DNA from: Actinomycetota bacterium
GTDB taxonomy: Bacteria; Actinomycetota; Thermoleophilia; Solirubrobacterales; Thermoleophilaceae
Direction of reading: 5' to 3'
Length of the DNA: 38,312 nt
NCBI GenBank assembly: GCA_005885165.1
Contig: VAXR01000060.1
Location: forward strand, 1 to 38,312
A program made the position numbers and the translations under genes. The stretch's first letter is position 1. Every line of letters begins with the position of its first letter. The notes under the pieces are model-generated. The model ran no database searches and was not told where the DNA came from. It worked only from the letters and a program-made list of their open reading frames with translations. Positions 1-34,755 of this stretch are shown piece by piece.

Positions 1-113
1 TCCATTACCCGAGCCGGGGGTGGGAGCTCCAGGACGCCCCGCCGATGCTGCCGGCGCAGCGCTACGCGGAGGCGCTGCTTGCGTTCTTTGCGGCTCGTGG
101 TGGGGGCGGCTAG
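1..113 (+). CDS. 3' end of an upstream gene (partial, product not identifiable)
   Basis: Open frame enters from the left edge and ends at TAG 111-113 (...HYPSRGWELQDAPPMLPAQRYAEALLAFFAARGGGG*). Codons are GC3-rich. Too short to name. Confidence 0.3.
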   Translation, partial: HYPSRGWELQDAPPMLPAQRYAEALLAFFAARGGGG

Positions 114-312
114 AAGGCTCGCTGCGTTGTCGCACTTTCGTAACGGTGCGTTTGAACGAAGCGGCCGTTCTCAGGCGCGAGTCGAATCTTGTGCGCTATA
201 GGCCACAAGAATGGCCTCGCGCCTGACTGCCGCCTTCGCGGGAGGCGAACACAGGGTTACGGGGCAGCCAACTACGTAACAGGGACCATCAACCGCGATC
301 GGGCCCGCCCCC
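102..312 (-). ncRNA. Candidate structured RNA, copy 1 of a two-member family (unnamed)
   Basis: Closing helix 102-109 (GGGGGCGG) pairs with 305-312 (CCGCCCCC). It encloses helices 171-181/216-226 and 188-193/204-209, whose loop contains GCTATAG. Collinear sequence blocks match the reverse complement of 33668-33885. Strand is guessed from a U.G pair (251/166) that is only possible on the minus strand. Confidence 0.4.
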
Positions 313-440
313 TTCGTTGCCCGCTGTGGGCCAACGACCGAAGGACGGCGCCGACGCAGTGTGACCGCCGCGGCCGGGGGATGGGTAGCGCCAGCGACGT
401 TGGCGCCGCGATGCTTGCCCGCGGGCGGGGCCCTAGCGCG

Positions 441-3149: not shown

Positions 3150-5876
3150 ATGCGGGGCATCAGATGGGTCGGGGCGATTCTCGCGGTTGGGGCCGTGCTG
3201 GCGCCGGCCGCGCTCGCCGCGCCTCCTCCGCCGCTGGCGCACGGGCAGGGTGACGCCGGCGGATTCCACGACGTCCTGCCGCCCGGAACGAACGGCTTCG
3301 ACAACGCCCTGGAGCTCCTGCAGTTCGAGAGCACGGGCGCGCGCCCCGCGCACAACCAGGACCAGCTCGGCATGTATCGCGACCTTCTGTACGCGTCACC
3401 GGGCCTACGCGCCGCGAACCTGACTCGCTACTACAAGGACTCCCGCTTCGGCGCGGCCCTCGCCGGCGCTGGCCAGCCGTACCACCCCGGCGGCAGGGAC
3501 GTGACCGTCGTGCGGGATCGCTACGGGGTCCCTCACATCAGGGGCGCCACGCGCGCGGACACCATGTACGCGATCGGCTACGTGACCGCGGAGGACCGGC
3601 TCTTCTTCATCGACGTCCTGCGCCACGTAGGCCGCGCGGAGCTGTCCTCGTTCGCCGGCGGGGCGTCCGCCAACCGCCTCCTCGACCGGGAGATCTGGCA
3701 GACGGCCCCGTACACCGAGGCCGACCTGCAGCGGCAGGTGGACCAGTCGCCGCCGGGCTTCGCGAAGCCGGCGGCCAAGCTGCGGGCTGACCTGCACGCG
3801 TACGTGGACGGGATCAACGGCTACATCGCCGAGGCGCGGCTCGATCCCAGCAAGATGCCGGCCGAGTACGCGGCCATCGACCAGCCGCTCGGCCCGACCG
3901 ACTGGAAGGCCACGGATACGGTGGCGGTTGCGACGCTGGTGGGGGCGATATTCGGCGCCGGGGGCGGCAGCGAGCTGCCGTCGGCGCTCGCGCTCGAGGA
4001 CGCGCGTCATCGCTACGGCAAGCGCGCCGGCACGCGCGTGTGGCAGGACTTCCGCGAGGCGAACGACCCGGAGGCGCCCACCACCGTGCGCGGCCGCGCG
4101 TTCCCCTACGAGCCCACCCCCAGGCACGCGCACGGGGTCGCGCTGCCGGATCCCGGCTCGCTGAAGGACTACGTGAACCTGGACGCGTCGACCACCAACA
4201 CGAAGGTCAGCGGTCCCGTCAAGACGCCGTTCCCGCTGGGGACGCTGGCCTTCCCGGGCGGGATGTCCAACGCGCTCCTCATCTCAGCCCGGCTCTCGGC
4301 CTCCGGCCACCCGCTCGCGGTGTTCGGGCCGCAGGTGGCCTACTTCGCGCCCGAGATCCTGATGGAGCAGGACGTGCACGGGCCCGGCCTGGCCGCTCGC
4401 GGCGCCGCGTTCCCGGGCGCCAACCTCTACGTGTCGCTCGGCCACGGCCGCGACTACGCGTGGAGCGCGACATCCGCCGGCCAGGACCTGACCGACACCT
4501 TCGGCGTCCCGCTCTGCGAGCCGGGCGGGAAGAAGCCGTCGATCGACTCCATGCACTACCTGTTCCGCGGCCGCTGCGTGGCGATCGAGGTGCTGAAGCG
4601 AACGGACTCGTGGAAGCCGAACGCCGCCGATCAAACCCCGCCCGGCACCGAGACCTACACGGTTCAGCGCACGGCCCTTGGCATCGTCACGGCGCGGGCG
4701 CGGGTGCACGGGCGGCCGGTCGTGTACACGAAGCTGCGCTCGACCTACATGCACGAGCCGGACTCGGGCCTCGGGCTCTCGCTGTTCAACGACCCGAACG
4801 TGATCCACGGCCCGCGCTCGTTCCAGCGCGCCGCCTCCCTGATCGGATACACGTTCAACTGGTTCTACGTCGACTCGCGGCACATCGCGTACATCAACTC
4901 CGGAATGAACCCGGTCAGGTCGCGCGACGTGAATCCGGACCTGCCGGTGCTCGCGTCGCGCCACACCGAGTGGAAGGGGTGGAACCCCGCCATCCGCTGG
5001 GAGAAGCTCTTCCCGTTCGCCCAGCGGGCGAAGACGATCGACCAGTCGTACATGACGAGCTGGAACAACAAGCAGGCGCGCGGGACGCGGGCGGCGGACG
5101 GCAACTGGGGCTACGGATCGGTGTACCGCTCGCAACCGCTCGACCAGGGGATCGTCCGCGCCACGAGACACGGCCGGAAGATGACGCTGCCGCAGCTCGT
5201 GGACGCGATGGAGCGCGCCGCGACCGTCGACCTCCGCGGCAGCCGCGTCCTGCCGTGGGCGCTGCGGGTGCTCGGCAACCGCCGCGACCCAGAGCTCCGC
5301 CACGCGCTCGCCCTCCTGCGGGCGTGGGTGCGCTCCGGCGCCCATCGCATCGACCGCAACCGCGACGGCGCCTACGACCAGTCGGAGGCGGTGCGGATTA
5401 TGGACGCCTGGTGGCCGCGCTGGCTGCACGCCGAGTTCGAGTCGGTGGTCGGCGGGCGGCTATTCCGGGACATCGCCGGCCTCAACGAGCTCGTCAACGC
5501 GCCGAACAACTCCGGCCAGCACCTCGGCTCCGCGTGGCAGGCCGGCTGGTACGGATATGCCCAGAAGGACCTGCGCACGGTGCTGGGACGCCACGTCCGC
5601 GGCCGCTACTCGCGCGTCTACTGCGGCAGGGGATCGCTCGCCCGCTGCCGCAACGCGCTCGCCGCGTCGCTGCGGGCAGCCCTCCGCCACGACACCCCGG
5701 CCGAGCTCTACTCCGGCGACCCGGTCTGCAAGCCCGCCAATCGCGACGCGAGCCAGACCTGCTGGGACTCGATCTACTTCCGCCCGCTCGGGGCCATCAC
5801 GCAGCCGCTGATCCCGTGGCAGAACCGGCCGACCTACCAGCAGGCGGTGGAGATCCCGCGCTCGATTGCTCGCTAG
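3150..5876 (+). CDS. Penicillin acylase family protein (Ntn hydrolase, S45), secreted
   Basis: 908-aa ORF with signal peptide MRGIRWVGAILAVGAVLAPAALAA. The internal GGMS-NALLIS block looks like the autoproteolytic Ser-Asn N-terminal nucleophile site (Ser codon 4266-4268). Size and two-chain architecture are typical of the family. Confidence 0.85.
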   Translation: MRGIRWVGAILAVGAVLAPAALAAPPPPLAHGQGDAGGFHDVLPPGTNGFDNALELLQFESTGARPAHNQDQLGMYRDLLYASPGLRAANLTRYYKDSRFGAALAGAGQPYHPGGRDVTVVRDRYGVPHIRGATRADTMYAIGYVTAEDRLFFIDVLRHVGRAELSSFAGGASANRLLDREIWQTAPYTEADLQRQVDQSPPGFAKPAAKLRADLHAYVDGINGYIAEARLDPSKMPAEYAAIDQPLGPTDWKATDTVAVATLVGAIFGAGGGSELPSALALEDARHRYGKRAGTRVWQDFREANDPEAPTTVRGRAFPYEPTPRHAHGVALPDPGSLKDYVNLDASTTNTKVSGPVKTPFPLGTLAFPGGMSNALLISARLSASGHPLAVFGPQVAYFAPEILMEQDVHGPGLAARGAAFPGANLYVSLGHGRDYAWSATSAGQDLTDTFGVPLCEPGGKKPSIDSMHYLFRGRCVAIEVLKRTDSWKPNAADQTPPGTETYTVQRTALGIVTARARVHGRPVVYTKLRSTYMHEPDSGLGLSLFNDPNVIHGPRSFQRAASLIGYTFNWFYVDSRHIAYINSGMNPVRSRDVNPDLPVLASRHTEWKGWNPAIRWEKLFPFAQRAKTIDQSYMTSWNNKQARGTRAADGNWGYGSVYRSQPLDQGIVRATRHGRKMTLPQLVDAMERAATVDLRGSRVLPWALRVLGNRRDPELRHALALLRAWVRSGAHRIDRNRDGAYDQSEAVRIMDAWWPRWLHAEFESVVGGRLFRDIAGLNELVNAPNNSGQHLGSAWQAGWYGYAQKDLRTVLGRHVRGRYSRVYCGRGSLARCRNALAASLRAALRHDTPAELYSGDPVCKPANRDASQTCWDSIYFRPLGAITQPLIPWQNRPTYQQAVEIPRSIAR

Positions 5877-6100
5877 TCGCCGCAGCACGTAGACGTTGCG
5901 AATGCGTCAGCCGCGGTCGCGCGTGCGCTCGTACGCTCGCGCGCTCCGCTCCTACGCTCGCGCACCACCCGCGCCTCCGGAGGGCGACGAACAAGGGGGT
6001 GGAAGTTACGTTCCCGTCACCCTCGTCGCGCTGCTGTCACGCGGCGTTCGGCCCCCGCCGAGCACGAGGGTCCTTCGAGCGTAGTCCGCCCGAGCAGCTG

Positions 6101-6930: not shown

Positions 6931-9858
6931 GTGCCGCTCACGCTCGTAACGGGTCCCGCCAACGCCGGCAAGGCGGGCGAGGTCCTGGCCGGCTACCGCA
7001 CCCGGCTCGACGAGGAGCCCGTGCTGGTCGTGCCCGCCTTCCGCGACGCCGACCACGCCCAGCGCGAGCTTGCGGGCCACGGCGCGGTGTTCGGGACCCG
7101 CGTGCTCCGCTTCGCGTGGCTGTTCGAGATGGTCGCGGAGCGTTGCGGCGCCGACGTCCGCGGTCCGCGGCGGGCGAGCGCGGTCCAGCGCCGGGTGCTG
7201 GTCGAGCGGGCGGTGGCGGCGACCCGCCTCACGAGCCTCGCGGCAGCGGCGGCGCGCCCGGGATTCGCGCGCGCCGCGGGGCGCTTCTTCGCCGAGCTCG
7301 GCCGCGCGATGGTCGACGCGGCACGCCTGCGCGTGGCGCTGCGCGCCTGGGCGGGAGACGGGCCGCGCCGTTCCCGCGCGGAGGACCTCGCCTCCCTTTA
7401 CTCGTCGTACAGGGACGTTCTCGAAGACGCCGGCCTCGTCGACGACCAGCTCTTCGCCTGGCGCGCGCTCGAGGCGCTGCGCGCGAACCCGTCGGGCTGG
7501 CGCGCGACCCCCGTCCACGTCTACGGATTCGACGACTTCACGGAGATCGAGCTGGCGCTGCTCGAGACGCTCTCGTCTGCCGCCGGCGCCGACGTGATGG
7601 TCTCGCTTCCCCACGAGGACGGACGGACCGCGTTCGACGCGATCGCGGCGACGCGCGAGCGGCTTGCCGCGATCGCGTCAGAGGAGATCGCGCTGCCTGG
7701 GTCGAGCGAGCACTACGACCCCGAGTCGCGGCCGGTCCTCAACCACCTCGAGCGCCGGCTGTTCGAGGCCTCCGGGGAGCGCGTCGACCCGGGCCGGGCG
7801 GTGCTCCTCCTGCGCTCCGGCGGCGAGCGTGCGGAGGTCGAGCTCGTCGGCGCCGAGGTGCTCTCGCTGCTCCGCGCCGGCACCCCCGCCGGGCAGATCG
7901 CGGTCGTCTTTCGCGACACCGCGGCCTGCGAATCCGTCGTGGACCAGGTGTTCACCGCGTACGGGATCCCGTACGCGCTCGACCGGACCGTCCCGCTCAG
8001 GCACACCGCACTCGGCGCAGGGTCGCTCGCGCTGCTCCGCTGCGCCGGCCCCACCGGTACGGCGGACGATCTCCTCACCTACCTGCGCACCCCCGGACGC
8101 CTCGACCAGCCCGCCCTGGCGGACGCCCTCGAGTCGGAGGTCCGGCGGAGCGGCGAGCGGAGCGCGGCCGCGGCCCGCAAGCGCTGGGAGGAGCGCCGCT
8201 GGCCGCTCGCGGAGATCGACCGCGTGGCGGCCGCGCGTGGAACGGCCGCGCTGGCGGCGCAGCTCGACGGCGAGGTCGAGAGGCTCTTCGGGCGCCAGTA
8301 CCAGCGCGCCGCGCACCTGTTCTCGCACGACGAGCTGGAGGATCCCCGAGCGCGCGAGGCGCTGCGTGCCGCGCTTCGGGACATCGCGACGCTCGCCACG
8401 GCCGCACCCCGGATCGTCCCCGACCGGCAGGCCCTGCACGACCTGCTGGGCGACGTCCCGGTCCACCTCGGGGCCGACCCCGCGCCCGACCGGGTTCAGG
8501 TCGCGCGTCCCGAGGCGATCCGCGCGCGGCGGTTCGAGGCGGTGTTCGTCTGCGGGCTCCAGGAGGGGGAGTTCCCGCGGCCCCGGCGCGCCGAGCCGTT
8601 CCTCTCGGACGAGGAACGCGTTGAGCTGGCGCGCGCCAGCGGGCTCGCGCTCCCGGTTCGCGACGACCGGGCCGCACGCGAGCGCTACCTCTTCTACTCG
8701 TGCGTCTCGCGGGCCGAGCGCCTGCTCGCGCTTTCCTGGCGCGAGACCGACGAGGAGGGGGCGCCGGCGGTTCGGTCCTTCCTGGTCGAGGACATCCTCG
8801 ACCAGCTCGATACGAGCGCGCTCGACGGGGTGACCCGCTCGCGTCCGCTCTCCGAGGTCGCCTGGCCGGCCGACCGCGCGCCGAGCGAGGCGGAGTGGCG
8901 GCGCGCGCTCGCGCTCGCCGGCCCGCGGCGCGCCCCGGTGCATCCCGAGCGGCTCGAGTCCGACGAGATCCTCGCCGACCTCGCCTCGCGCGACCGGCTC
9001 TCCGCGGCGGCGCTCGAGAGCTACGCCGACTGCCCGGTCAAGTGGCTGATCGAGCGCCAGCTCGAGCCCGAGTCGCTCGAGCCCGACCCGGAGCCGCTCG
9101 TGCGCGGCCGCTACGCGCACGCCGTCCTCGACGCGACCTACCGGAGGCTGCGGGAGCGCACCGGGGCGCGCCGGGTGACCCAGGACAACCTGGTGGCGGC
9201 GGAGGAGATCCTGATCGAGGCCCTGCGCGAGCAGGAGGGCCAGTTCCAGATCTCGCCGATGGCCACGCGCGTACGGACGGCCGTGCGACGGCTCGAGTTC
9301 GACCTCCTCCGCCACCTCCGCGCCGAGGCGGACACGAGCGGCCGCTTCGAGCCGTCCGAGCTGGAGCTCGAGTTCGGCCTCGAGGGGTCGCTGCAGCCCG
9401 CCGTCCCGATCGGCGACGGCCTGAGCATTCGCGGGCGCATCGACCGCGTCGACACCTGGAACGGCTACGCCCTCGTCCGCGACTACAAGAGCGGAAAGAC
9501 CGTCCACCCCGTCGCGCGCTGGGAGCGCGACCGCCGGCTGCAGGTCGCGCTCTACATGCTGGCCGTTCGCGAGCTCCTCTCGGCGGACGTCGCGGGCGGC
9601 GTCTACGTGCCGCTCGCGGGCGACGACCGCCGCGCCCGCGGCGTCGTCCTCGACGAGCTGCGCGAGGAGCTCGGGGAGGGCTTCGTGAGGAACGACTTCA
9701 TGCCCGCGGCGGAGATCGAAGCGGAGCTCGAGCGCGCCCGGGAACGCGCTCGCGAGCTGGCCGGCCGCCTGCGCTCCGGGGAGGTGCGCCCCTGCCCCAA
9801 GACGTGCGCGTGGAACGGCGGCTGCTCGTATCCGTCGGTCTGCCGGGTGGAGCGCTGA
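6931..9858 (+). CDS. Helicase-nuclease subunit, AddB/AdnA-like (degenerate motor plus C-terminal PD-(D/E)XK nuclease with Cys cluster)
   Basis: GTG 6931 gives VPLTLVTGPANAGKAG (Walker A-like). The C-terminus has the RecB-nuclease motif GRIDRVD...ALVRDYKSGK, and Cys residues at DCPVKW plus CPKTCAWNGGCSYPSVC. TGA 9856-9858 overlaps the ATG of the next gene. Confidence 0.8.
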   Translation: MPLTLVTGPANAGKAGEVLAGYRTRLDEEPVLVVPAFRDADHAQRELAGHGAVFGTRVLRFAWLFEMVAERCGADVRGPRRASAVQRRVLVERAVAATRLTSLAAAAARPGFARAAGRFFAELGRAMVDAARLRVALRAWAGDGPRRSRAEDLASLYSSYRDVLEDAGLVDDQLFAWRALEALRANPSGWRATPVHVYGFDDFTEIELALLETLSSAAGADVMVSLPHEDGRTAFDAIAATRERLAAIASEEIALPGSSEHYDPESRPVLNHLERRLFEASGERVDPGRAVLLLRSGGERAEVELVGAEVLSLLRAGTPAGQIAVVFRDTAACESVVDQVFTAYGIPYALDRTVPLRHTALGAGSLALLRCAGPTGTADDLLTYLRTPGRLDQPALADALESEVRRSGERSAAAARKRWEERRWPLAEIDRVAAARGTAALAAQLDGEVERLFGRQYQRAAHLFSHDELEDPRAREALRAALRDIATLATAAPRIVPDRQALHDLLGDVPVHLGADPAPDRVQVARPEAIRARRFEAVFVCGLQEGEFPRPRRAEPFLSDEERVELARASGLALPVRDDRAARERYLFYSCVSRAERLLALSWRETDEEGAPAVRSFLVEDILDQLDTSALDGVTRSRPLSEVAWPADRAPSEAEWRRALALAGPRRAPVHPERLESDEILADLASRDRLSAAALESYADCPVKWLIERQLEPESLEPDPEPLVRGRYAHAVLDATYRRLRERTGARRVTQDNLVAAEEILIEALREQEGQFQISPMATRVRTAVRRLEFDLLRHLRAEADTSGRFEPSELELEFGLEGSLQPAVPIGDGLSIRGRIDRVDTWNGYALVRDYKSGKTVHPVARWERDRRLQVALYMLAVRELLSADVAGGVYVPLAGDDRRARGVVLDELREELGEGFVRNDFMPAAEIEAELERARERARELAGRLRSGEVRPCPKTCAWNGGCSYPSVCRVER

Positions 9859-31852: not shown

Positions 31853-33624
31853 TGCGCGACGTGATCGTAATCGGCGCGGGCGGCGGCGGCCCGGTGGTGG
31901 CGAAGGAGCTCGCCGCCCACGGGCTCGACGTGCTGGTGCTCGAGGCGGGCCCGCGCCACCTGCGGCCTGAGCGCGAGTGGCGGCACCTCGAGAACGACGC
32001 CAACAACCCGGTGTCCGGCTACTTCCGCTGGGGGCCTGCCGACCGCGCGAAGTCCGAGTGGCTGCGCGAGACCCCGCAGAACTGCTTCGTCTGGCAGCTC
32101 TCGGGCGTGGGAGGTACGACGCAGCACTACTACGGCAACTGCCCACGCGCCGTCCCGGGCGTCTTCCACGGCTACAGGGGCAGGGACCGCTCGCGCTACG
32201 ACCGCGCGCACGAGTTCCCGTTCTCCTACAAGACCCTCGTCCCCTACTACGAGTGGGTTGAGCACACGCTGCCCGTGCAGACGGCCGCGATGGGCACGAA
32301 GGAGGAGGTCTTCCTCCACGGCGCGAGCAAGCTCGGGATCCCGGTGCAGAAGACGAAGGACGCCCTGCACGCCGCGTACAGGCCCCAGGAGAACGCGATC
32401 CTCCAGCCCCACGGCACGGCGGGCAAGACGGCCGAGCGGAACAAGCTCGTGTTCCCGAAAGCGCGCGGCTGCACCTTCTGCGGCTACTGCTTCCAGGGCT
32501 GCTTCGAGCCGCGCCACGCCCCGCGCAACCTCTTCGCCAAGCGCTCCACCGACAACAGCTACGTGCCGATGGCCCTAACCGCGGACGCCTGGTCGAAGCA
32601 CGGCAAGCGGATCACGCTGATCCCCGACGCGTTCGCCACGAAGATCGGGACGACGACCGTCGGCGGCAAGACCGTCGCGAACAGCGTCACTTGGCGGGTC
32701 GGCAAGACCGGCGAGACGTTCACCGAGGAGGCCAAGGTGATCGTCATGTCGGGCGGGACGACGGAGAACCCGCGCCTGTGGCTGAACAGCGGGCTTCCGA
32801 ACCCGAACGACTGGGTCGGCCGCGGCTACACGGACCACTACTTCGACTGGCTGATCGGCGTCATGCCCCGCTACACGGGGTCGAGCAAGGGGCCGGGCTC
32901 CTCGGCGCGCGTCGACTTCCCCGGGCACGGCGGGCTCGAGAACGTCGGGCTGCCTCCGGCGCTTCAGGCGTTCTCGGCCACGTTCTCGGACGGCGGGATC
33001 AACGACGTGTACCTGAACGGCCACCCGAAGATGCACGGCGTGGACGGCAACGGACGCCGGGTGGGCAACCTCCTCAAGCAGCTGACCCACGACGTCGACC
33101 GCCTGCTGAACGTGCTCGTGATCACCGACGACGACGTGGAGGCCCAGAACCGCGTGACGCTGTCACAGGACCTGCCGGCGGACGAGAACGGTGCGGTGCC
33201 GAAGATCGAGTTCCACTACCGCCAGCGGACGGCACGTACCCTGCGGAACCGCGAGTACCTGGCGCGGAAGGCGCTGGCGCTCCTGAAGCACGCCGGCGCG
33301 AAGCAGGTCTACCGGCTGAACTGGCCGCCGCTGATACTCCACGTCCAATCGACGATGCGGATGGGGGCGAGCCCCTCGAACTCGGTGCTCGACCGGAGCT
33401 GCGAGGCGCGCTTCGTCAAGCGGCTCTTCATCGCCGACAACTCGGCGTTGCCGAACTCGCTCGGAGGCCCGAACCCGACGCTCACCAACCAGGCGCTCTC
33501 GACGCGCACGGCCGAGACGATCTTCAGGCGCTACTTCGGCGGCCACGACTACGTGAGGAACGGACACCCGGTGCAGTCGATCGACCACCGGGTGACGCGC
33601 GCGGTGCTGAAGCGGAAGCTGTAG
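31852..33624 (+). CDS. GMC family FAD-dependent oxidoreductase
   Basis: DVIVIGAGGGGPVVAKELAAHGLDVLVLEAG is the Rossmann FAD motif. The C-terminal block is HVQSTMRMG...LFIADNSALPNSLGGPNPTLT. Confidence 0.85.
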   Translation: MRDVIVIGAGGGGPVVAKELAAHGLDVLVLEAGPRHLRPEREWRHLENDANNPVSGYFRWGPADRAKSEWLRETPQNCFVWQLSGVGGTTQHYYGNCPRAVPGVFHGYRGRDRSRYDRAHEFPFSYKTLVPYYEWVEHTLPVQTAAMGTKEEVFLHGASKLGIPVQKTKDALHAAYRPQENAILQPHGTAGKTAERNKLVFPKARGCTFCGYCFQGCFEPRHAPRNLFAKRSTDNSYVPMALTADAWSKHGKRITLIPDAFATKIGTTTVGGKTVANSVTWRVGKTGETFTEEAKVIVMSGGTTENPRLWLNSGLPNPNDWVGRGYTDHYFDWLIGVMPRYTGSSKGPGSSARVDFPGHGGLENVGLPPALQAFSATFSDGGINDVYLNGHPKMHGVDGNGRRVGNLLKQLTHDVDRLLNVLVITDDDVEAQNRVTLSQDLPADENGAVPKIEFHYRQRTARTLRNREYLARKALALLKHAGAKQVYRLNWPPLILHVQSTMRMGASPSNSVLDRSCEARFVKRLFIADNSALPNSLGGPNPTLTNQALSTRTAETIFRRYFGGHDYVRNGHPVQSIDHRVTRAVLKRKL

Positions 33625-33667
33625 GGCGCGCTTACCCAACCGCCAGCGGGGCTCAGGCCAACAGCAT

Positions 33668-33885
33668 CGATAAAGGGGCAGGGATGGTTTCGCCGCGCGT
33701 TACGTTCGTTGCCGTCTTGTAACCGGACGTTCCCCTGAGAGGGCCTCCGGCGAAGACGAGAGTCCATTACTAGGTGCTATAGCCCCTACGAATGGACTCG
33801 CGCTCTAAGGGGGCGAACGCGCGGTTACGAGATTGAGACACGGCAACGTGATTGGCGCGCGGTAACAGGCCCACTCCCTTTATCG
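33668..33885 (+). ncRNA. Candidate structured RNA, copy 2 of a two-member family (unnamed)
   Basis: Nested helices seen: 33668-77/33876-85, 33693-702/33853-62, 33707-15/33840-48, 33718-25/33822-29, 33728-35/33811-19, 33760-68/33791-99, 33771-74/33785-88. Several G.U pairs exist only on the plus strand. It is homologous to the reverse complement of 102-312. Confidence 0.45.
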
Positions 33886-33948
33886 CTTCCCTCCACCTCG
33901 GGCAATGAGGCGTTCTGCGCCGCCCAGGTGCGGCTCGCAGGGGCCCGC

Positions 33949-34755
33949 CTACAGCGGCGTCTCGTGCGAGCCCGCTCGCCCGGCGTCGCTCTTCTCGTAG
34001 AACCGCTTGAGCCGGCCCAGCGTCTCCTCCGCGTCGGCGCACGAGTAGCCGTTCAGTGCCTCGATCCGCAGCTGGTCGTCGAGCGGCCGGCCGATCACGT
34101 CGAGGATCGTCTCCTTCGCCGAGCGCACGGCGACCTGGCTGTTGCGGAGTATCTGGCGCGCCACCCGCTCGGCCTCGTCCATCAGCCGCTCGTGGGGAAC
34201 GACGCGCGACACCAGGTTGCACTGGAGCGCCCGCTGCGCGTCGATCGGCTCCGCGGTGAGGAGCATCTCGAGCGCGATCCCTGAGCCGCAGGTGTTCACC
34301 AGCCTCACGATCCCGCCGTCACCGTGGTGGTAGCCGCGGCGGGCCTCGAACGACCCGAACATCGCGCGCTCCGAGGCGATGCGTATGTCGCAGGCCAGCG
34401 CGGTCTCGAGGCCGCCGGCAAGCGCCCAGCCGTTCACCGCGGCGATCGTCGGCTTGTACGTGCGGTGCAGTCCGCGCGTCAGCCCGCCCAGCCCGGTGGC
34501 GACGTTGTCGCGCACCTTCCGGGGCGTGGCGTCCTCGATCCACGGAGGGATGAAGGTCTTGAGATCTGCACCCGCGGAGAAGGAGTCACCGGTGCCGGTG
34601 AGGATCGCGACGTCGACCGCGTCGTCCGAGGCGAAGTCCTCCCAGGTGCTCCAGAGAAGCTCGTGCGTCTCGGGATCGATCGCGTTCTTGGCCTCGGGTC
34701 GGTTGATCGTGACGTAGGCGATCCGGTCGCGCTTCTCGTAGAGCACCTTGGGCAC
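33949..34755 (-). CDS. Enoyl-CoA hydratase/isomerase (crotonase) family protein
   Basis: GTG 34755 lies 4 nt after AAGGAGGA. Blocks seen: RIAYVTINRPEAKNA, FSAGADLK, AAVNGWALAGGLE. Confidence 0.85.
   Translation of the reverse strand: MPKVLYEKRDRIAYVTINRPEAKNAIDPETHELLWSTWEDFASDDAVDVAILTGTGDSFSAGADLKTFIPPWIEDATPRKVRDNVATGLGGLTRGLHRTYKPTIAAVNGWALAGGLETALACDIRIASERAMFGSFEARRGYHHGDGGIVRLVNTCGSGIALEMLLTAEPIDAQRALQCNLVSRVVPHERLMDEAERVARQILRNSQVAVRSAKETILDVIGRPLDDQLRIEALNGYSCADAEETLGRLKRFYEKSDAGRAGSHETPL

Follow-up and report, generated by a model that had tools for sequence, protein, structure and literature searches.

A probable deletion-damaged copy of a low-copy quasi-palindromic repeat in a Thermoleophilaceae contig

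The convergent spacer between a 215-aa CDS and a GH76 gene, at the start of a 38,312-nucleotide contig from a Thermoleophilaceae bacterium (the whole stretch analysed, here called the window; G+C content 71%), contains an element that is homologous to a second element in the same contig. The first element, copy 1 (~121-333), is probably a deletion-damaged copy of a lineage-specific, low-copy, interspersed quasi-palindromic repeat of ~230 bp. The repeat resembles the MITE, REPIN and ERIC classes. The family appears to be undescribed for Thermoleophilia; it is absent from Rfam, and no prior description was found in the literature on Thermoleophilia palindromes.

A palindromic DNA repeat can mimic the signature of a structured RNA, in that helices are kept while the sequence changes. 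The DNA-repeat and RNA readings could be separated here because strain-level alleles and empty orthologous sites were available. Cataloguing the family would avert false ncRNA calls, and the family would explain some of the assembly breaks and spacer-length polymorphism in MAGs of Thermoleophilia, a poorly studied yet abundant soil lineage.

The copies in the window

The first-pass annotation described positions 102-312 as a second, inverted and diverged copy of the element at copy 2 (33655-33900), and supported this with a series of short matching blocks. Every quoted string was found at its position (Table 1). The reverse complement of 90-330 and the forward strand of 33650-33900 share collinear conserved blocks in a MAFFT alignment. 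With nhmmer, the reverse complement of copy 1 matched the forward strand of copy 2 with E=3.2e-8. The local alignment between the two copies scored higher than all 1000 dinucleotide shuffles, with z-scores of 4.9 (inverted) and 6.3 (direct). When copy 1 was left out, a profile HMM of the remaining members of the family recovered it at E=1.9e-26. The description as a second, diverged copy of the same element is borne out by nhmmer, the shuffles and the leave-one-out HMM, and the position in a convergent spacer was confirmed. The claimed span corresponds to a real element, but its true limits run from a deletion junction at ~121-124 to ~333.

Table 1. Positions of the elements and of related features. 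Positions are those of the window unless a related locus (L number) is named.
Feature	Position	Strand	Basis or remark
Copy 1, truncated long-form palindromic repeat	121..333	nominal canonical -; orientation ambiguous	R2, leave-one-out HMM
Copy 1 core hairpin GCGCGAGTCGAAT-CTTGTGCG-CTATAG-GCCACAAG-AATGGCCTCGCGC	175..222	near-identical on both strands	pattern match, both strands
Surviving 5' strand of outer helix / terminal inverted repeat	301..330	-	reverse complement is CCCACAGCGGGCAACGAAGGGGGCGGGCCC
110-bp deletion junction	121..124		L003/L004 comparison; AACGC direct repeat flanks it in the undeleted allele
Last codons GGGGGCGGC and TAG stop of upstream CDS	102..113	+	read directly
Stop codon of upstream CDS	111-113		read directly
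Claimed closing-helix strand GGGGGCGG	102-109		read directly
Claimed closing-helix strand CCGCCCCC	305-312		read directly
Block GCGTTGTCG	124-132		read directly
Block and CGTNAC-type motif TCGTAAC	138-144		reverse complement GTTACGA at 33824-30; further motif sites at 256-260 and 276-280, these two 20 bp apart
Block GCGCGAGTC	175-183		reverse complement at 33795-803
Block GCTATAG	195-201		read directly
Block CTTCGCGGGAGGC	234-246		reverse complement matches 33743-55 at 12/13
Block ACGTAAC	274-280		read directly
Block ACCATC	285-290		read directly
Third copy, half element	5975..6068	-	R2 28 bits, E=1.6e-7; profile HMM 31 bits, E=1.2e-11
Copy 2, complete long form (227-nt rod-like hairpin)	33655..33900	+	MFE, R2
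Copy 2 core hairpin	33757..33803
Core hairpin/DUF559 overlap	L026 8332-9227
Core hairpin/DUF559 overlap	L012 2957-3436
Core hairpin/DUF559 overlap	L025 1276-1646
Core hairpin/DUF559 overlap	L028 4462-4530
Core hairpin/DUF559 overlap	L049 9966-10885

Under the R2 covariance model copy 1 scored 130 bits on the minus strand and 70 bits on the plus strand, and copy 2 scored 155 bits. The copy 1 core scored 62.9 and 60.5 bits under the R1 model, and its stem is present in the MFE fold. The segment 301-330 aligns with GGGCGACGAAGGGG of L011, L016 and L020. Copy 2 folds into one rod with ~105 bp per arm and an MFE of -115.8 kcal/mol. The third copy consists of the right arm only, CGAACGCCGC-GTGAC-n15-GTGAC-n6-GTAAC ... 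CCCCCTTGTTCGTCGCCC. Its core and left arm are missing, while three GTNAC sites and the outer repeat strand are kept, and it starts just past the stop codon of the gene at 3150..5876. The 38-kb window thus holds 2.5 copies in total. Between copy 1 and the GH76 stop codon lies ~110 nt of G+C-rich sequence with small hairpins (334-440), which belongs neither to the palindrome nor to the orthologous spacer; a trypanosomatid snoRNA match to it in Rfam (E=8.5) is a chance match.

Both copies 1 and 2 are near-perfect long palindromes around the core GCGAGTCCATT-N8-CTATAG-N8-AATGGACTCGC, and the centre of symmetry is the self-complementary CTATAG. Comparison of the two copies by nhmmer gave 28.2 bits inverted versus 24.9 bits direct, and local alignment gave scores of 33 direct versus 29 inverted. 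Leave-one-out profiles scored the two strands of the window copies at 80.4/75.5 and 63.5/62.7 bits. Alignments of an element with its own reverse complement reach the same height as alignments between elements. Because both copies are quasi-palindromes that match nearly equally on either strand, their relative orientation is undecidable and the term "inverted" cannot be upheld. The annotation also argued from a G.U pair that copy 1 is read as RNA from the minus strand. This argument fails across the family, whose stems contain 23 G.U versus 26 A.C pairs. The strand preferred by forward and reverse folding energies differs between members, with no consistent strand.

The repeat family

The core pattern CGAGKCSAWT-N6-10-CTATAG-N6-10-AWTSGMCTC, for which the number of chance matches expected in the window is 0, was used to scan genome and metagenome collections. 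Among 185,579 GTDB species genomes it produced 4 strict matches, all in one Thermoleophilaceae MAG. The pattern was present in 22 contigs from soil metagenomes, and no match was obtained in viral contigs or a plasmid collection. Removal of duplicates left ~22 distinct core loci. Covariance models and targeted look-up added three more (L025 1586-1656, L033 9225-9290 and L049), which brings the family to about 25 loci, all of them from Thermoleophilaceae or soil metagenomes. The L033 and L025 additions are variant cores: one has a GCGAGTTACCG/CGGTAACTCGC stem with CTATAG, the other the usual stem with CTAAAG.

Two forms were distinguished. The short form is a hairpin of ~50 nt alone, with an invariant lower stem GAGTCCATT/AATGGACTC, a variable but paired upper stem and a CTATAG loop. 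In the core alignment of 21 loci 80.7% of the cells are paired, with covariation in the upper stem above an invariant lower stem. The structure behind these pair counts was set by hand; RNAalifold on the core alignment gave only 5 invariant pairs.

The long form is an ORF-free sequence of 212-242 bp (about 230) in which the core is nested between arms. Seven long forms were found at unrelated loci, namely both window copies, L011/L029, L016 (twice), L020 and L017. The arms carry CGTNACG motifs 11 or 20-21 bp apart and a CGAACGC-NNC-GTNAC block. The outer inverted repeat, about GGGCGACGAAGGGG/CCCCTTCGTCGCCC, shows 14 bp of perfect pairing in L011; across the seven long forms 84% of it is paired. 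The density of GTNAC is 14.6 per kb in the long elements versus 1.67 per kb in the window, a 9-fold difference, and 7/16 GTWAC sites of the window lie inside the two copies.

Identity between copies of the same genome is only about 60%. The best pair, L016a/L016b, consists of two inverted long forms 6.4 kb apart (707-919 and 7118-7333, cores 795-836 and 7211-7252) that are ~80% identical. A composite transposon was considered for this pair and rejected, only OsmC, catalase, GST and BNR-repeat genes being found between the copies. No near-identical copies were found at different loci in the family; recent transposition is thus without support.

Alleles, orthologous sites and gene context

Both window copies are polymorphic. 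L003 and L004, which come from other samples and encode an identical GH76 protein, have 110 extra bases directly after ...GACAACGCA. These bases contain GGGCCACCCTCTTTGTCGCC, a clear homologue of CCCACTCCCTTTATCG in copy 2 and of CCCCTTCGTCGCCC elsewhere, and GGGCCACCCTCTTTGTCGCC is the true homologue of the 3' closing strand, lost from the window copy. The 110-bp deletion took the 3' strand of the outer helix and ~75 nt past it. The deleted allele is common to the window, L001, L002, L009 and L018; a full-length copy 1 is found at L003 1753-1984. The first-pass annotation treated the helix GGGGGCGG/CCGCCCCC as the counterpart of CGATAAAGGG/CCCTTTATCG in copy 2, which the L003/L004 alleles refute. 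It also noted that this closing helix overlaps the end of the upstream CDS. The pairing can indeed form, but it is a by-product of the deletion: the G-run at 305-312 pairs with the CDS-end codons because the deletion brought them near, and the pairing is not ancestral.

A 164-bp internal deletion in L041, L042 and L044 removed the whole core of copy 2. The full copy is present in L038, L039, L040 and L045, whose GMC-oxidoreductase protein is identical to that of the deleted strains. The deleted sequences (L041 4274-4433, L042 and L044) are alleles of window 33625-33948 with identical flanks and a remnant that carries extra substitutions, and the L041 remnant differs by further substitutions from that of L042/L044. 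Among close strains only internal deletions, and no precise empty allele, were found. Large deletions are typical of long palindromes.

Sites orthologous to those of the window were located in more distant relatives. At the copy 2 site, between the GMC oxidoreductase and enoyl-CoA hydratase genes, the spacer of L035 (86% protein identity) is 15 nt versus 324 nt here. At the copy 1 site, between the GH76 gene and a 223-aa gene, that of L046 (84% protein identity) is 4 nt versus 327 nt here and 437 nt in L003. Gene order in L035 and L046 is the same as at the window sites. At the copy 2 site L031, L032, L033, L034, L036 and L037 (72-85% identity) lack the element as well, and the core model found 0 copies in 58 kb from three of these. 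The enlarged spacers would most simply be gains in the window lineage, repeated losses elsewhere being much less parsimonious.

The inserted spacers exceed the palindrome by ~100-200 nt of unrelated sequence. In L003 the spacer at the copy 1 site is bounded by CTAG...CTAG, a possible target-site duplication, versus CTAT at the empty L046 site. These bounds sit 100-120 nt outside the palindrome, and copy 2 is without a comparable flanking repeat. The CDS upstream of copy 1 ends ...FFAARGGGG-stop and its L046 orthologue ...FFARPGRRA-stop (window 69-113 versus L046 4325-4390); the two C-termini diverge exactly at the edge of the enlarged spacer.

Most copies lie directly past stop codons or between convergent genes. 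In L008 one of the two stop codons directly abuts the hairpin (0 nt), and 3 nt separate it from the other. In L021 (205-324) a tRNA (Rfam tRNA, 61.9 bits) ends 6 nt before a short-form hairpin, which in turn closes 8 nt before a convergent gene. The neighbouring genes are functionally unrelated and include IF-1, a tRNA, an epimerase, a glyoxalase, OsmC, a LuxR regulator, enoyl-CoA hydratases and DUF427. A location downstream of secreted-enzyme genes, raised in the annotation as an example, showed no association when the neighbours were annotated with Pfam. A regulator specific to enoyl-CoA hydratase genes was rejected, the two hydratases being paralogues of only 34% identity. An integron attC site was rejected as well. 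Such sites have R''/R' core sites of the form RYYYAAC ... GTTRRRY and lie inside a gene-cassette array; GTTACGA is unlike GTTRRRY, and the neighbours here are syntenic housekeeping genes, not cassettes.

Origin of the repeat and other readings

The copies were probably inserted into formerly minimal convergent spacers of this lineage. They are not kept at orthologous sites, decay fast through large deletions and have no preferred strand. The family may spread, or may once have spread, as a non-autonomous mobile element like a MITE, REPIN or ERIC. The conserved structure with different sequence would then come from the two arms of a DNA palindrome co-varying, possibly through a shared recognition site of the mobilising enzyme, through template-switch correction of quasi-palindromes, or both. 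Covariation of this kind need not reflect selection on one RNA fold. A copy between convergent genes is probably co-transcribed into both 3' UTRs, where a very stable stem-loop could block 3' exonucleases or impede read-through. Such an effect is probably a consequence of the element and not the reason for its existence.

The elements share several features with MITEs and ERIC. They have terminal inverted repeats, one of which is deleted in copy 1; they are under about 500 bp, non-coding and dispersed in multiple copies; and they show presence/absence polymorphism at orthologous sites (empty L035 and L046). For MITE, ERIC, REP and SPRITE repeats a preference for 3' ends and convergent genes is known, as is an effect of some of them on mRNA stability (PMC3184786). 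As in ERIC and the MITEs Correia, RUP, Nezha and Chunjie (PMC3184786), the repeat is an imperfect palindrome of the 100-250 bp class with terminal inverted repeats, is intergenic and often co-transcribed at 3' ends or between convergent genes, occurs as length variants through internal deletion or insertion, and varies in presence among related genomes. Unlike in these elements its centre, not its termini, is the most conserved part, which is unusual for a MITE, and its copies share only the ~60% identity given above. No autonomous element or transposase with matching ends was found in the ~330 kb examined. SPRITE and other terminator-like repeats of Streptococcus pneumoniae (cited in PMC3184786) differ from the present repeat, which has no U-tail, is far longer and is nested.

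In REPINs, which are mobile DNA, a hairpin-forming spacer lies between two invariant inverted blocks, and within it "compensatory changes ... are common" (Bertels & Rainey 2011, PMC3116915). Two conserved inverted blocks with a hairpin spacer and compensatory changes were likewise found at 21 loci here, with the spacer conserved only as a hairpin, in extragenic positions and as solo units and higher-order forms. Unlike REP and REPIN repeats, which have tens to hundreds of copies per genome in Proteobacteria, the present repeat has a handful of copies (4 strict matches in one MAG) in an actinobacterial host, has no GTAG-type 5' motif, and has its core nested in a 230-bp palindrome. RAYT is a Y1 transposase gene that is flanked by REP/REPIN repeats. 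Near the copies neither a transposase nor a RAYT gene was found, and Y1_Tnp was not annotated among the called genes of the related loci. Since these palindromes are readily deleted, their absence at orthologous sites could also be due to repeated loss.

On another reading the element is a functional structured RNA, either a cis-acting 3'-UTR element or an independently transcribed small RNA, whose fold is under selection. That fold would have four helices: a closing stem, a pair of GUNAC hairpins and, at the apex, a CUAUAG hairpin. Copy 2 and copy 1 do fold strongly (z=-7.2 and -3.8), the upper stem of the core covaries and the CUAUAG loop is invariant in 24/25 loci. In the four-helix RNAalifold consensus of the seven long forms pairing reaches 88%, and 10 pairs have changed on both sides, a result equalled by 1/500 shuffles. 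Some helix covariation is thus above shuffled controls, and a constraint at the level of RNA or ssDNA may act. The observation that helices are kept with different sequence is upheld by these figures, but need not reflect selection on one RNA fold. The RNAalifold covariation term was +1.2 and adds no support. Strand asymmetry was found neither in the folding energies, nor in the G.U/A.C counts, nor in the profiles, and orientation to the flanking genes is inconsistent, L016a (canonical) being antisense to both its neighbours and L017 sense. The GTNAC pairs are sometimes direct repeats that cannot pair (GTCAC..GTCAC in L020; GTAAC..GTAAC in L017 and L016a). No sigma-70-type promoter was found at the copies, no terminator-like site with a U-tract was found in 1-600 or 33500-34100, and searches of the window, both copies and eight related loci against Rfam gave no relevant match at the gathering threshold or at E<=10. 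Finally, the element is missing at the same sites of related genomes, and large deletions segregate among near-identical strains. Taken with these results, a conserved functional RNA is disfavoured and we regard it as unlikely.

Chance sharing of sequence between ordinary bidirectional terminators, or a terminator cluster of convergent genes, is in our judgement very improbable. Terminators would suit the position of the copies in convergent spacers, the distance of often only 0-30 nt between hairpin and stop codon, and the symmetry of a hairpin that is the same on both strands. However, a U-tract is missing on either side, and a rod of ~230 nt whose primary sequence and loop are both conserved goes far beyond the needs of termination. 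The same hairpin occurs past a tRNA and at the 5' start of DUF559 genes, and relatives manage with spacers of 4-15 nt.

The association with DUF559 (PF04480) genes is the one part of this analysis that could lead somewhere new, and it may mark a mobilising or regulating partner. At L012, L026 (=L013/L014), L025, L028 and L049 a DUF559 gene starts at the ATG within the arm AATGGACTC. Close homologues (E<=1e-30) of the gene number 653 and come mostly from contigs of 1-3 kb, and the N-terminus MDS (=ATGGACTC) was present in 45/120 of the best of these. L049 is a 65%-identical homologue on a 70-kb contig that was picked only for its MDS N-terminus and large contig. Its hairpin sits exactly on the DUF559 start codon with 62 bits, which confirms the link at an independently chosen homologue. 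No closing inverted repeat was found at the 3' end of the gene, no DUF559 gene was found in the 38-kb window, and no literature on a link between DUF559 and the hairpin was found. An origin of the long-form arms from DUF559 coding sequence was rejected, as the profile of the gene's 5' end aligns over the core and <=35 nt only.

The repeat might instead be a double-stranded DNA module bound by protein, which distributes putative sites for a regulator or nucleoid protein. The core GAGTCCATT-N22-AATGGACTC would be a candidate operator, the AbiEi-like winged-helix N-terminus of DUF559 proteins a candidate binder, and the GTnAC boxes in the arms would be helically phased sites of the OmpR/GlnR type. 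The core lies exactly on the DUF559 ATG at L012, L026, L025b and L049 and at the L028 remnant of 9 codons, GTNAC sites are 9-fold enriched and spaced at 11 and 20-21 bp, and the symmetry and absent strand bias suit double-stranded recognition. The GlnR box published for Streptomyces venezuelae is moreover GTnAC-n6-GTnAC (Pullan et al. 2011, PMC3087709), and this box with its 11-bp offset occurs in the arms of L016a, L016b, L020 and L017, although this is a resemblance only. The window copies, unlike GlnR/OmpR boxes in promoter regions, have GTTAC-n15-GTAAC with offsets of 20 and 38 bp and lie at gene 3' ends. Most copies of the family are at 3' ends, which is unexpected for operators. The 22 bp between the half-sites are self-complementary and covary, which an operator would not need, and the 38-kb window has no gene for the candidate binder. 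We therefore consider a protein-bound module doubtful.

A further reading, which we hold to be quite unlikely, is that the CTATAG hairpin is the cis element of an undescribed selfish system around multi-copy DUF559 genes. The product of these genes is a Vsr-like PD-(D/E)XK nuclease whose N-terminus is an AbiEi-like winged helix. It would recognise the hairpin, or autoregulate there, and would disperse in trans the solo hairpins and the long forms with their phased GTnAC boxes. This would be a partnership like that of REP and RAYT, but with a different nuclease family. At two of the linked loci the DUF559 gene is degraded, being an internally deleted pseudogene in L025 and the 9-codon remnant in L028.
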